Below are positions 2,036 to 8,394 of a stretch of DNA of 64,000 bases, one piece after another. The position numbers and the translations under genes were made by a program. The DNA lies in the IMG/VR virus record IMGVR_UViG_3300045988_138661; one strand, 5' to 3'. This DNA comes from a virus. The stretch's first letter is position 1; each line of letters starts with the position of its first letter. The notes beneath the pieces are model-generated. The model worked only from the letters and a program-made list of their open reading frames with translations, was not told the DNA's origin and searched no databases.

Positions 2036-2108
2036 GCTGGAGTAGCTCAGCAGGTAGAGCGCTTCACTTGTAATGAAGATGTCGCGGGTTCGATTCCTGT
2101 CTCCAGCT
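2036..2108 (+). tRNA. tRNA-Thr (anticodon UGU)
   Basis: Hand-folded cloverleaf: acceptor GCTGGAG/CTCCAGC, D arm GCTCAGCAGGTAGAGC, anticodon loop CTTGTAA, T loop TTCGATT, CCA encoded. Confidence 0.8.
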
Positions 2109-2155
2109 CCATTAATCAAAAAGATTAAAATAAATGTGTAAAAGGTGTAAAATTA

Positions 2156-2505
2156 TGAATTATTCTCTGGACAAGTATAAGTTTTATGAGTACAATGACC
2201 CCAAGGGTAAGAAGACTGTGAGCGCGGTTTCTACGTATGCCGGTCGGACAGTCAAGGGCTATGCTAAGTGTGATCCTCGTGATAGCTTTAATGTTGAAAA
2301 TGGCAAGAAGCTCGCGGCCGCGCGTTGTAATGCGAAGGTTTCCGCAAAGCGTATGAAGCGCGCTGAGTATAAGATGAAGGAAGCTCAGGCTCTTCTTGAT
2401 CAGGCTCAGGCTCATTACGACAAGATGGTGAATTATTTCAACGATGCTTCTCGTGATAAGTCTTTTGCCGAGAATGAGGTAAATTGCCTCCTTAGGGAGA
2501 TGTAA
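2156..2505 (+). CDS. small hypothetical protein (coiled-coil C-terminus), paralog of the 25102-25539 product
   Basis: ORF between tRNAs, higher GC than neighbours. Shares the motif G-x-AKC-x-P-x-D...KV with the ORF at 25102. Start at 2156 is preferred over 2134 because of the RBS. Confidence 0.5.
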
Positions 2506-2510
2506 TAAAT

Positions 2511-2533
2511 AAGGAGAAGATTTTCTTCTCCTT
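2511..2533 (+). terminator. rho-independent terminator hairpin
   Basis: AAGGAGAAGA tttt CTTCTCCTT followed by TATTT. Confidence 0.6.
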
Positions 2534-2538
2534 TATTT

Positions 2539-2630
2539 GGTAGGGTGCCGAAGTGGACATAACGGCCTAGACTTGAAATCTTGTGTGCCGGCTTTGAACC
2601 GGCCCGTGGGTTCGAATCCCACCCCTACCG
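2539..2630 (+). tRNA. tRNA-Ser (anticodon UGA), type II with long variable arm
   Basis: Acceptor GGTAGGG/CCCTACC, anticodon loop CTTGAAA, variable-arm hairpin GCCGGCTTTGAACCGGC, T loop TTCGAAT, CCA encoded. Confidence 0.7.
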
Positions 2631-2636
2631 CCATAT

Positions 2637-2727
2637 GCGGTCGTGCGATAATTGGTAGTCGGCTCGCCTGGAAAGCGAGTGTCGGCGTTCATAGCGTCGA
2701 TTGTAGGTTCGAGTCCTACCGACCGCG
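2637..2727 (+). tRNA. tRNA-Ser (anticodon GGA), type II
   Basis: Acceptor GCGGTCG/CGACCGC, anticodon stem-loop CTCGC-CTGGAAA-GCGAG, long variable arm, T loop TTCGAGT, CCA encoded. Confidence 0.75.
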
Positions 2728-2755
2728 CCAACTAATTTAATAAGGAGGATATTAT

Positions 2756-3046
2756 ATGAAATCTAATTCTCGCGCTTATAATCGTGATGTTTCCAAAAGA
2801 AAAGCATTGAGAAAGCGTAGAATCACCAAAGAAGTGTATGGTTATCTTACTCATCCTTATTATGATAATCTCCATCAATTTAGTAAAAATAAAATCCATT
2901 GTTCATGTCCTATGTGCTCAGTCAAAAGTAAGAATAGAGGAAGAAGACGCAAAAAAGCGTGGTATTCTCCTACTTATAATTGGAAGATCGCGGATTTGCG
3001 TAAATTCAATAAGATGGACATGAGCTGTGAGGACGCGGGCGTGTAA
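2756..3046 (+). CDS. small highly basic protein (Lys/Arg-rich, CxC...C), possible nucleic-acid-binding protein
   Basis: 96-aa ORF with RBS AAGGAGG. Resembles the 3911-4222 product in composition and N-terminus. Confidence 0.45.
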   Translation: MKSNSRAYNRDVSKRKALRKRRITKEVYGYLTHPYYDNLHQFSKNKIHCSCPMCSVKSKNRGRRRKKAWYSPTYNWKIADLRKFNKMDMSCEDAGV

Positions 3047-3064
3047 AGTAAAAATACTTTACAC
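3041..3064 (+). terminator. terminator hairpin
   Basis: GTGTAAAGTA aaaat ACTTTACAC. Confidence 0.55.
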
Positions 3065-3081
3065 CAATTTCCGCAATTTTT

Positions 3082-5415: not shown

Positions 5416-5430
5416 CCAATAAAAAATTTT

Positions 5431-5459
5431 TTGATTTTTTCAAAAAAATATATTATAAT
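5431..5459 (+). promoter_or_regulatory. conserved promoter copy (TTGATT variant)
   Basis: TTGATT, 17 nt, TATAAT. Confidence 0.65.
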
Positions 5460-5492
5460 ATTTATATCAAATGAAAAAGGAGAAAAAAAATT

Positions 5493-6308
5493 ATGCCTTC
5501 TAATTCTCGTGCTGAAAATCAGTATTATGGTAAGTATCGTGAGTGTTGTGTTGTTGCTCATCTGAACAACACTGAGGTTGAATATCATGAGAACTTTGTT
5601 TTCACAACGGAAGAGAAGACTCTCCTTTCCAGTGAAGCAAAGCTCATTGCCGATTTCCTTGGTGATCATACCGCAACCTATCTCGGCAATCACACTGCTA
5701 ATGAATCTGGCGATATCCTTTTGGACAATGGTGAAGTTGTTGAAATTAAAACTGTAAGTGCTGGTTCTGGTACTTATTTCAATACTTCCATTTATTATTT
5801 TGATAAATTCGGTTTTAATTTTAAGGACTACATGGAATCTTGTGGTTTATATGATGCACTGGAGAAAAACTTTGGAGATATTGTTAAGATTAACCGTAAA
5901 ACTAAATCTCCTGTAAGCCAGCCCAATTCTTCCTTGATCCGGCATAATTACGAAGAGTTATACAAGGAAACTATTGTTCCTGTTGATACAGCGATGCGAA
6001 TGAAATTTACTCAGGATATTGCTGATTTCTTTGCTAATAATCCTGACCGAGTTTATGAATTTATTACTGATATGCTGGAAAAAAACAGCTCTACCAGTAA
6101 GAAAACTAGTCCTGATCGTCTAATTGTTCTTAACTATAATAAGAACAAAGTTAGAGAAATTGACCTTAAGAATTTTAAGGATAATATTTCTACTCACATT
6201 CGAGCAACAGAAAAGGGCCTGGTCGTTGGTAATGTGCGTGTTGCTTTTAGCTGGCAGAATGGCGTAGGTTTGAATAATCCTACAATTAGAGCATTTTTGG
6301 AGGATTAA
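5493..6308 (+). CDS. putative type II restriction endonuclease (PD-(D/E)xK-like), first gene of an R-M-DUF262 operon
   Basis: 271 aa, no in-frame TAG. The segment D-x(n)-EVVEIK resembles a PD-(D/E)xK core. It overlaps the start of a methyltransferase by ATGG. Confidence 0.35.
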   Translation: MPSNSRAENQYYGKYRECCVVAHLNNTEVEYHENFVFTTEEKTLLSSEAKLIADFLGDHTATYLGNHTANESGDILLDNGEVVEIKTVSAGSGTYFNTSIYYFDKFGFNFKDYMESCGLYDALEKNFGDIVKINRKTKSPVSQPNSSLIRHNYEELYKETIVPVDTAMRMKFTQDIADFFANNPDRVYEFITDMLEKNSSTSKKTSPDRLIVLNYNKNKVREIDLKNFKDNISTHIRATEKGLVVGNVRVAFSWQNGVGLNNPTIRAFLED

Positions 6309-6309
6309 T

Positions 6310-7161
6310 ATGGGTTTAGACAAATTTTATACATAGGACCATGTAGCAAGACATTGTTTTGAATTTTTACATTAGAAATTAAATATAGCCGATTCGGCTA
6401 TTTATCTTGAACCAAGTGCCGGAGCAGGTTCATTTATTAATCTGTTAAATCATTATGTAGCTTTAGATATTGCTCCAGAGGATGATCGAATTACACAGTA
6501 GGATTACCTAGTTTATGAAACAGATAGAACTAATTTTATCACAATTGGTAATCCACCTTTTGGTTCTCGATCTAAGTTAGCAATTGATTTTTTCAATAAG
6601 GCTGCGACTATGTCTGATGTAATTGCTTTTATTGTTCCTGTTTCATTTATGAAATGGAGTGTACAGAAAAATTTAAGTTCTAATTTCGCACTTCATAGTT
6701 ATACTTATTTGGAGCCTGAATCTTTCTCCTCTAATGGAGAGCCTTATAGTGTACGCACTGTATTTCAGATTTGGGTTAAAAAAGGCAGTCAATATGATAA
6801 TGGAGTTAATCTTCGTCTAACAAGGCAGCCCCCTATTTCCCATCCCGACTTTGAAATTTGGCAGTATAATGCTACTCCAGAAGCAGTAAAGTATGTGGAA
6901 GAGGATTGGAAATATGCCACATATCGTCAAGGTTATCACGATTATAATCAAATCTTTACCCGCGATGATTATGATCATATTAAAGAAAAAATGACAGGAA
7001 CTAAGAAACAGCAATTTTTCTTTATTAAACCTTTATCTGCTGAAGCAGAAAAATTAATTTTGACTATGGATTTTAATGCTTTAGCTGAAAGAAATACTGC
7101 TACTCCTGGGTTCGGTAAGGGCGATTTTGTTAGTTATTATACTGAATTAAAGGAGAATTAA
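6310..7161 (+). CDS. N6-adenine DNA methyltransferase (gamma-type order, motif I then motif IV NPPF) containing 3 in-frame TAG sense codons
   Basis: One frame from ATG 6310 to TAA 7161: FYT-TAG-DHVARH..., LEPSAGAGSF (FxGxG), ITQ-TAG-DYLVYE..., ITIGNPPFGSR (motif IV). TAA and TGA never occur in frame. Confidence 0.7.
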
Positions 7162-7162
7162 A

Positions 7163-8170
7163 ATGGATATTCCTCTATCAACTTATAGCTTTAAAAATGT
7201 TGGATATAATTTAGAATCAATTTTATTATTTTATCAATCTAATAGAATTGATACAGATCTAGATTGTCAACGAGGCTACGTTTGGACTTCTGAACAAAAA
7301 CAACAATTAATTGATACTTTAATTAATCGAGAAAGAATTCCAGAATTTCATGTAATTAAAGAGGCGGATGAAGCAATTTTTCATTTCGCTGATGGAAAAC
7401 AAAGAATTACTACAATTCTTAATTTTTTATCTGGTAAGTTATCCTGGGAAAAAAGTCAAGCTGATTCTAAATTTAAGGAATTATTTGGTAAAGACAATAA
7501 ACTTTTCTTTTCTGATCTTCCTGAAAATTTTTAGAATATGATTTTAGATACAGAGTTACAATTTGCTTGTTATAGTAATATGACTCCAGCTTCTACTACA
7601 AAATTATTTAGAAAATTAAATAGTGGAACTGCTCTTGGTGAATTTCAAAAAGGACTCGCTGAAAATATTACTATTAAGTAGTATTTTTTAAATACATTAA
7701 TGGATCATCCTGTAATTCAAAAGATTTTTTCTACTTCTAAAATAGAAAAAGGAAATGCTGAACAAGCTTTAATCAGATTAATGATTTTAATGAAAAATTT
7801 GGATGATAATATTAATATTGAATGTGATTTAACTCCTCCAAATTTAAAAAATTACTATCTTAATCTTGAGGGAGCATCTGAAGAAGAATCTTATCAGTGG
7901 ATTTAGATTTTAGATATTTATCAGAAAAAGATTAAAAAGTATCTTGATTGGCTAAATACTTATACTAATTTAAATTTAAGCACTCGATCTGATTATGTTT
8001 TTTTATTTAGTACATTTTTTACTTATAAAAATAATGGCGATGAAGAATATTTAAAAATGCTTTTTGAAACTCTTAATGGAATAAGCGCTGGCTCTATAGT
8101 TGGATCTGGTTCTGATTACAGCAAAACAAATGTTAAAAAGTATTTAGAATATATTTCTAATTTAGCTTAA
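7163..8170 (+). CDS. DUF262 (GmrSD/ParB-like nuclease N-terminal domain) protein with 3 in-frame TAG sense codons
   Basis: One frame 7163-8170 with TAGs at 7535, 7676 and 7907. Conserved DUF262 motifs DCQRGYVW, DGKQR and the later F-x-x-LNSG lie on both sides of the TAGs. Confidence 0.6.
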
Positions 8171-8184
8171 AATAAAGATCTTAA

Positions 8185-8213
8185 TTGATTTTTTATAAAA
8201 ATTATTATATAAT
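8185..8213 (+). promoter_or_regulatory. conserved promoter copy upstream of tRNA-Cys and the Ro60-like gene
   Basis: TTGATT, 17 nt, TATAAT. Confidence 0.65.
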
Positions 8214-8320
8214 ATATATGTAAGGTTGAGAAATACCTATAAAAAATAATTCCTCTTGTCCAAGAGGAAAATATTCAAACTAGTGAAATTTATATTTATG
8301 AGTAATTAATTTACTCATAT

Positions 8321-8394
8321 GGCAAGGTACTCAAGTGGTTTAAGAGGACGGTCTGCAAAGCCGGTATTCGTGAGTTCGAATCTCACCCTTGCCT
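8321..8394 (+). tRNA. tRNA-Cys (anticodon GCA), immediately upstream of the Ro60-like gene
   Basis: Acceptor GGCAAGG/CCTTGCC, D arm CTC-AAGTGGTTTAA-GAG, anticodon loop CTGCAAA, T arm GTGAG-TTCGAAT-CTCAC, CCA encoded. Flanked upstream by two perfect hairpins (8249-8271 and 8299-8319). Confidence 0.7.

Follow-up and report, generated by a model that had tools for sequence, protein, structure and literature searches.

How does a phage read UAG as an amino acid when none of the tRNAs seen in its sequence can pair with this codon? The question is raised by a 64,000-nucleotide (nt) stretch of viral DNA, IMG/VR record IMGVR_UViG_3300045988_138661, which was analyzed at its full length and which we call the window. 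Its genes hold in-frame TAG codons, and its array of eight tRNA genes, between positions 2036 and 8397, contains no CUA anticodon. Comparison with related contigs makes it very probable that the window carries the distal half of a two-part tRNA array, in an uncultivated TAG-to-glutamine (Gln) human-gut phage of ~160-200 kilobases (kb) that encodes its own suppressor tRNA, tRNA(CUA), in the proximal half. The missing suppressor would be an artefact of where the 64-kb window begins and ends.

TAG as a Sense Codon for Glutamine

Once TAA and TGA are taken as the only stops, many long open reading frames (ORFs) on the + strand contain TAG in frame, such as those at 27084-28457 (9 TAGs) and 44790-46556 (7 TAGs). 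Only TAG, and neither TAA nor TGA, occurs in frame in this way. The whole load amounts to 59 in-frame TAGs in 22 genes, including the DnaB gene and the following:

27156-28457, + strand: endolysin-like gene (Phage_lysozyme2 and Amidase_2) with 9 in-frame TAGs, the maximum in the window
44808-46556, + strand: RecJ-like DHH exonuclease gene with 6 in-frame TAGs
55824-57833, + strand: NrdD, anaerobic ribonucleotide reductase; the ORF start may be earlier

Protein domains continue across these codons. The Pfam NRDD match on NrdD spans two in-frame TAGs (481.3 bits, profile positions 2-562 of 562), and other single Pfam matches crossing TAGs are Phage_lysozyme2 with Amidase_2, DHH with RecJ_OB, DnaB_C, AAA_30 with UvrD_C_2, and GIY-YIG. 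TAG sites are also kept in relatives. TAG is a sense codon in this phage, as had been stated in a first-pass annotation made from the letters of the window alone.

We took relatives from IMG/VR and tabulated the codon opposite each TAG of the window. At 90% identity or above, 294 of the 301 aligned codons are TAG, and the seven exceptions are CAA (four times), CAG, AAA and AAG (once each). Among the non-TAG codons, CAA or CAG makes up 60 of 139 where the relative has 60-90% identity and 56 of 151 where it has less than 60%, and together they are by far the commonest replacements of TAG. Relatives that lack TAG at position 572 of the RecJ-like protein have Gln there in all cases (21/21), and the same holds for position 219 of the RecD-like protein (16/16). 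Because the aligned codons in relatives are mostly CAA or CAG, TAG can be assigned to Gln, that is, to genetic code 15.

Coding density was compared as well. Long ORFs cover ~0.66 of the close-clade loci under code 11, ~0.87 with TAG as sense (code 15) and 0.76 with TGA as sense. In the window alone this contrast is weak: + strand ORFs of at least 100 amino acids (aa) total 16,260 aa under code 11, 18,804 aa with TAG as sense and 19,487 aa with TGA as sense, the last slightly above the second. The 59 ORFs scanned yielded no release factor, aminoacyl-tRNA synthetase or CCA-adding enzyme; this set stops short of the TAG-containing + strand ORFs at 47513-47974, 57830-58177, 59355-59915 and 61567-61995 and of the minus-strand ORFs beyond ~62 kb.

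Eight Conventional tRNA Genes in the Window

We detected eight tRNA genes, given here with their scores for the Rfam tRNA model RF00005:

2036-2111, + strand: tRNA-Thr(UGU), CCA encoded (ARAGORN; Rfam, 70.0 bits)
2539-2633, + strand: tRNA-Ser(UGA), type II (ARAGORN; Rfam, 47.3 bits)
2637-2730, + strand: tRNA-Ser(GGA), type II (ARAGORN; Rfam, 56.5 bits)
3489-3580, + strand: tRNA-Leu(UAA), uninterrupted, with an atypical variable region (ARAGORN; Rfam, 53.3 bits)
4346-4421, + strand: tRNA-Gly(UCC) (ARAGORN; Rfam, 45.8 bits)
4804-4878, + strand: tRNA-Lys(UUU) (ARAGORN; Rfam, 80.2 bits)
5342-5418, + strand: tRNA(CAU), elongator Met or Ile2 (labelled Met by ARAGORN; Rfam, 47.6 bits)
8321-8397, + strand: tRNA-Cys(GCA) (ARAGORN; Rfam, 59.3 bits)

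The Rfam model, whose gathering score is 29, matches exactly these eight genes in the 64 kb (45.8-80.2 bits, E <= 1.4e-6). A cloverleaf and an anticodon could be assigned to each of them, the anticodons agree between the two tools, and CCA is encoded in all eight. The tRNA(CAU) is not an initiator, because it has a G1:C72 pair. Five of the eight have anticodons with U34 and read A-ending codons. The first-pass annotation had arrived at the same eight genes and anticodons by hand-folding, and ARAGORN and Rfam match it gene for gene. Its statement that none of them pairs with UAG is confirmed by all eight anticodons, and neither tool assigned CUA to a listed gene, the outcome that it had named as speaking against it.

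No tRNA with a CUA anticodon was found in the window by Rfam or by ARAGORN in its default, relaxed, intron or mitochondrial modes. The intron mode returned the identical eight genes, and a permissive Rfam scan of 1300-9000 (E <= 5) gave zero extra tRNAs. Lowering the ARAGORN threshold to 80% and using the mitochondrial mode over the 64 kb yielded low-quality noise only, with no credible CTA tRNA.

A Suppressor tRNA Upstream in Relatives

The close relatives are human-gut contigs of 160-200 kb, with 93-99% protein identity and ~95% nucleotide identity to the window. They carry the window's reduced tRNA set, and no CTA tRNA lies within 10 kb of their DUF2828-like gene. With chimeric protein queries built from two fragments, we walked along their contigs to both sides simultaneously. 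The second walking step led to a further tRNA cluster, upstream of the tail-fibre/structural block. This cluster consists of Leu(aag), His, Ile(tat), Ile(gat), Val(tac), a 90-nt tRNA(cta) and Tyr(gta), and some strains also have Pro, Arg, Asn, Phe or Ser(gct). The 90-nt tRNA(CUA) sits between tRNA-Val(UAC) and tRNA-Tyr(GUA).

ARAGORN finds this tRNA(cta) in six of the six close-relative contigs that reach far enough, namely 118370, 126669, 131075, 126226 and 122866 (our loci L124, L125, L133, L134 and L143/L150, respectively) and L178, an independent ENA human-gut contig. Rfam scores it at 57.7-57.8 bits as a tRNA, and it is near-invariant among close relatives (88-90 of 90 positions). By blastn, it lies 8.6 kb upstream of the equivalent of window base 1 in L143, L150 and L178 and 12.2 kb upstream in L124. 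Locus L166 covers 7.9 kb upstream of the window-start equivalent and has no tRNA there, which is consistent with a placement at 8.6-12.2 kb. More distant relatives (L014, L015, L019, L025, L028) also have a tRNA(cta) in the homologous tRNA region, and in L014 and L015 it is just downstream of the DUF2828-like gene. The walk ended at the suppressor cluster and ran over all but ~80-100 kb of the genome.

The first-pass annotation had proposed that the suppressor is elsewhere in the phage genome or in the host, or that one of the tRNAs had been misfolded. The upstream tRNA(CUA) of the relatives supports the first option, which would extend to the window's own strain by way of these relatives; the options of the host and of misfolding are not needed.

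Sequence and Identity of the Suppressor

The suppressor of the close clade, located at 5214-5303 in L124, has the sequence UGCCCCGUAGUGUAAUGGUUAACACGGCGGUCUCUAAAACCGUUUUCCCUUUGAAGGAGUCGUUCUGGGUUCGAAUCCCAGCGGGGCUG. Its acceptor end shows U1 facing U72, a G2:C71 pair and a G73 discriminator, and the molecule also has G10, U35 and the anticodon loop CUCUAAA. U1 begins nine of the nine distinct CTA tRNAs of the phage group, and the suppressors of the distant relatives are ordinary tRNAs of 75-77 nt. Most tRNA-Gln genes of the group combine a weak A/U 1:72 pair with G73, and the 3' acceptor strand with its discriminator, CGGGGCUG, is common to the close-clade suppressor and the tRNA-Gln(UUG) of one relative. 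These Gln-like acceptor features fit a Gln identity and are no proof of it. A recent origin from a Tyr, Ser or Leu tRNA, which would imply a non-Gln meaning for TAG, was considered and rejected: identity is only ~57-60 of 90 positions, and the acceptor end is tRNA-Gln-like.

The supE-type amber suppressor of E. coli is a tRNA-Gln with a CUA anticodon that inserts Gln at UAG, and glutaminyl-tRNA synthetase (GlnRS) uses a weak 1:72 pair and the G73 discriminator. The clade's suppressor shares with it the anticodon, the weak 1:72 pair and G73. It departs from it in that a U1-U72 mismatch stands in place of U1:A72, the variable region is long and CCA is not encoded. In a Firmicute host lacking GlnRS, the suppressor would depend on glutamyl-tRNA synthetase and GatCAB for its charging.

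Weighing the Alternatives

In the explanation we favor, the eight tRNAs of the window would be conventional decoders, and UAG would be read by a dedicated phage tRNA(CUA) encoded in the proximal half of the array, parted from the window tRNAs by a block of tail-fibre/structural genes. Several points weigh against this explanation. The presence and position of the suppressor in the window's own genome are deduced from relatives: neither IMG/VR nor the metagenome collection yielded the strain itself, the best matches to its strain-specific tail-fibre gene being partial (91-93%), exact-protein searches with the window's tail-fibre-like protein and Pol III alpha returned no record, and the best nucleotide identity of any fetched locus was ~97%. 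Charging with Gln is likewise read from sequence features and codon alignments. The 21-nt variable region of the suppressor is unusual, being of type-II-like length and atypical for tRNA-Gln; no CCA is encoded, unlike in the window's eight tRNAs; and tRNAs other than tRNA-Gln also have U1 among those compared.

It is conceivable, and in our view improbable, that this strain has lost the suppressor and that TAG is read via a suppressor of the host, via a relative infecting the same cell, or through near-cognate readthrough with tRNA-Gln, tRNA-Lys or tRNA-Tyr. The strain's own upstream sequence was not retrieved, the clade's tRNA arrays differ in gene content among strains, and Borges et al. (10.1101/2021.08.26.457843) detected TAG suppressors in only ~40% of TAG-recoded genomes. 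However, the suppressor and its near-invariant sequence occur in every close-relative contig that reaches far enough, and the 59 TAGs in 22 genes, DnaB, NrdD and the endolysin among them, are a load that would not be tolerable with low-efficiency readthrough. We regard as very unlikely that an RNA of the window decodes UAG through modification, editing or an odd fold, be it one of the eight tRNAs, for example tRNA-Leu(UAA) with its atypical variable region, or the adjoining RAGATH-33 RNA (described below), which has no known function. Non-canonical RNAs were suggested as a possibility by Borges et al., yet the alignments pair TAG with Gln and not one of the eight tRNAs resembles tRNA-Gln. Two independent tools read their anticodons without ambiguity, relatives possess a conventional and dedicated tRNA(CUA), and RAGATH-33 has no tRNA-like fold in the Rfam alignment. 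Next to no credence can be given to the view that TAG is not a sense codon and that the interrupted ORFs are pseudogenes, sequencing errors or split genes. Code 11 does still give the 16,260 aa of + strand ORFs mentioned above, but the TAG positions are kept in 12-18 independent contigs, Pfam domains run across them, TAG is the only stop codon in frame, and relatives encode suppressor tRNAs.

Codon Usage Divides the Genes of the Window

Seven CAG-only genes, first set apart from the others, use TTA at 0.02, AAA at 0.16, TCA at 0.01 and ATA at 0.00, and the 53 genes outside this subset use them at 0.48, 0.82, 0.17 and 0.12. We scored genes by an index of the use of TTA, AAA, ACA, TCA, GGA and ATA, the codons of the window tRNAs, with Gln codons excluded; ATA counts among them if the CAU tRNA is Ile2. 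The class with an index below 0.25 comprises 10 genes with 3,480 codons and 0 TAG, and all 59 TAGs with their 22 genes fall in the remaining class of 50 genes (13,783 aa). Index and TAG density are correlated (Spearman rho 0.60, p = 4e-7). Among the low-index members are the DUF2828/DUF7788, major-vault-protein-like, RNA ligase and Band_7 genes and small ORFs inside the tRNA region. Pol III alpha (1,337 aa; 47 CAA, 3 CAG) is a member of the A-rich class that nevertheless lacks TAG. That TAG-free genes avoid these codons lends support to the earlier suggestion that the tRNA set may serve A/U-rich codons, as if compensating a host pool.

The DUF2828-like gene keeps its bias in L018 and L021 at ~53% protein identity (0/36-37 AAA, 0/39-40 TTA). 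Because the bias persists in relatives this divergent, it reflects sustained selection, not recent acquisition. We also observed ORFs that are open on both strands (845 aa on the + strand, 844 aa on the - strand) at 10048-12585, 8374-9987 and 16712-18169. Codon bias is the likely cause, since TTA, CTA and TCA, the reverse complements of the stops, are almost unused and leave the codon-aligned antisense frame stop-free; the antisense ORFs are probably non-genes.

A working model can be added to the favored explanation. About 10 genes, mostly located after the array, have no TAG and nearly none of the six codons named above, and the tRNAs of the host would suffice to translate them. All other genes, among them replication genes, the endolysin-like gene and the tail-fibre ORFs of relatives, would need the phage tRNAs and the suppressor, and the array together with the suppressor would gate their expression. 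Two points speak against this model: replication genes hold TAG too, so that the partition is not a simple replication-versus-structural split, and the low-index class could mirror a high expression level instead of timing. In a bolder reading, which we consider possible and hold with little confidence, the phage genes may be written in two "dialects," with the suppressor as merely the extreme member of the array.

Promoters and Terminators of the tRNA Array

The following promoter-like and terminator-like sites were found in and near the array:

1873-1901, + strand: perfect sigma-70-type promoter-like site (TTGACA-17-TATAAT) upstream of tRNA-Thr
3082-3110, 3268-3296 and 4229-4257: further 12/12 promoter-like copies
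5431-5459, 8185-8213 and 10020-10048: 10/12 promoter-like copies
5281-5328, + strand: strong terminator-like hairpin of 20 pairs, just upstream of the CAU tRNA
2511-2533 and 9974-10009: further terminator-like hairpins

A 30-nt extended version of the promoter motif occurs 6 times in the window, where 0 occurrences are expected, and similar promoters stand ahead of the upstream tRNA cluster in L124. Because consensus sigma-70-type promoters precede most of the tRNAs, the window tRNAs are probably transcribed early by the host RNA polymerase. The segment 9970-10090, which corresponds to the suppressor site of L014 and L015, was considered as a degraded remnant of a suppressor and rejected, as it contains only a terminator hairpin and a promoter.

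RAGATH-33 and Interrupted tRNA Genes

A structured RNA adjoins the tRNA-Leu gene of the window:

3594-3722, + strand: RAGATH-33 RNA (Rfam RF03102), 13 nt past the 3' end of tRNA-Leu (126.8 bits)

The match covers the full model (1-113 of 113; gathering score 120.4), and the RNA has the same place relative to tRNA-Leu in L143 (19059-19187). A literature search on RAGATH-33 found nothing.

Several tRNA genes of relatives are interrupted. In L143 (18220-19045), a 736-nt insertion with an ORF for a 148-aa HNH endonuclease parts U34 from A35 in tRNA-Leu(UAA); U is the last base of the 5' exon and G that of the insertion. Alignment breakpoints indicate the same split of tRNA-Leu(UAA) in L079-L081. 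The split lies at the classic site of the cyanobacterial and plastid group I intron in this tRNA. Rfam group I intron models gave zero matches in L143 at the gathering threshold, with no permissive scan made of the segment. Default ARAGORN misses the split gene of L143, and the tRNA-Leu(UAA) of the window is intron-free and unlike the split copies in sequence.

Two further interruptions were noticed. At L143 20264-20406, which corresponds to window 4804-4878, tRNA-Lys(UUU) has a 68-nt insertion in the anticodon loop, with an ambiguous splice junction. The insertion resembles a miniature tRNA, with an acceptor-like GAUGAAA/UUUCAUC pairing, a T-arm and a terminal GCCA, and Rfam reads the whole 140 nt of the region as a tRNA (59.9 bits). 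At L124 4752-4950, ~260 nt upstream of the suppressor, a tRNA gene carries a 123-nt anticodon-loop insertion; it is labelled Glu(UUC) in ARAGORN intron mode, and its D-arm, weak 1:72 pair and G73 resemble tRNA-Gln. Default tRNA finders miss such interrupted genes (736-, 123- and 68-nt insertions), which is a warning for surveys that lack a suppressor in ~60% of recoded phages.

Neighboring Genes and the Ends of the Region

Downstream of the array lies a block in which TAG is nearly absent:

8443-24916, + strand: essentially TAG-free block downstream of the tRNA array

The exception is a small ORF at 13872-14207 with two TAGs within its first 21 codons. The block encodes DUF2828/DUF7788, a major-vault-protein-like protein (MVP_shoulder, Vault_3), cREC_REC, RlaP, two to three Metallophos phosphoesterases, an RNA ligase, NADAR, an AAA_33 kinase-like protein and a Band_7/SPFH protein, and in four of its genes the codons of the window tRNAs are avoided to an extreme degree. 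In its content it looks like an RNA-repair or ribonucleoprotein module. In L124, weak matches to the Y-RNA-like family YrlA lie between the tRNAs (3298-3406; 34 bits, with a gathering score of 69).

An island of ~4.9-8.3 kb (~4880-8320) that includes the CAU tRNA is absent from all sampled close relatives, judged from blastn breakpoints; none of L001-L012 has a CAT tRNA. In relatives lacking the island, the Lys and Cys tRNAs are 40-900 nt apart. Its ORFs are:

5493-6308: ORF without a Pfam match
6310-7161: methyltransferase-like ORF with 3 TAGs
7163-8170: GmrSD_N/DUF262 ORF with 3 TAGs

This looks like a strain-specific island of restriction or anti-restriction flavor inside the tRNA array. 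At the far end of the window (~62000-64000), gene orientation and GC skew flip: + strand genes stop near 62.0 kb and TAG-bearing genes begin on the minus strand. In relatives, these minus-strand genes continue as a giant TAG-rich ORF of more than 1,295 aa (L088 1-3885).

Comparison With Known Systems and Implications

The phage is without a close relative in GenBank. A megablast of window 1-20000 against GenBank phages matched only the tRNA-Thr gene of Klebsiella phages, and the best match of Pol III alpha was at 39% identity in SPbeta-like Bacillus phages; its relatives come from human-gut metagenomes. TAG-to-Gln recoding with phage suppressor tRNAs is established in crAss-like, Lak, Agate, Garnet and other gut phages (10.1101/2021.08.26.457843; PMC9523058). 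With these code 15 phages, the present one shares a low GC content, in-frame TAG that aligns with Gln, a tRNA(CUA) encoded by the phage, as seen in its relatives, a subset of genes still readable in the standard code, a lysis gene with the most in-frame TAGs, and no need for an aminoacyl-tRNA synthetase or release factor in cis. It differs from them in that TAG also occurs in replication genes (DnaB, RecJ-like, NrdD), that the suppressor of this clade has a 21-nt variable region, and that recoding coincides with a broader partition of the A-ending codons served by phage tRNAs. Another group to which it can be likened, by description only, is phAss-1 and the proposed Phassvirus group, human-gut Caudoviricetes which have TAG in many ORFs and suppressor tRNA genes, three of them in the 136-kb phAss-1 (PMC10607447). 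As a lead only, the distant relatives of 133-142 kb in our set (L016, L018, L019, L021 and L026) might be members of this group.

For the tRNA arrays of large phages, van den Berg et al. discuss two roles, codon compensation and the replacement of host tRNAs that defence nucleases have depleted (PMC10264068). Our phage shares with such arrays the multiple tRNAs, anticodons that match codons common in most phage genes, and an adjacent RNA-repair-type module. It differs in that the array, as seen in relatives, includes an amber suppressor, and in that a subset of genes nearly avoids the array codons. On the most economical reading of the partition, genes that have to be made with host tRNAs only would steer clear of both TAG and the codons of the phage tRNAs, and the other genes would depend on the phage array with its suppressor. 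This reading matches both the regulatory model of Borges et al. and the codon-compensation view (PMC10264068).

A genome without a suppressor would have been interesting in itself; this phage instead fits the established picture of TAG-to-Gln recoding with a phage's own suppressor. The interrupted tRNA genes of its relatives would account in part for the failure to detect suppressors in many recoded phages. That TAG use goes together with the use of phage-tRNA codons gives concrete form to the idea that phage tRNAs and recoding time gene expression. If the two-dialect reading is true, stop-codon recoding would be the end point of a general tRNA-dependent translational gate, and the key tRNA of this gate would be a suppressor of Gln type, unusual in its long variable arm and its lack of an encoded CCA.

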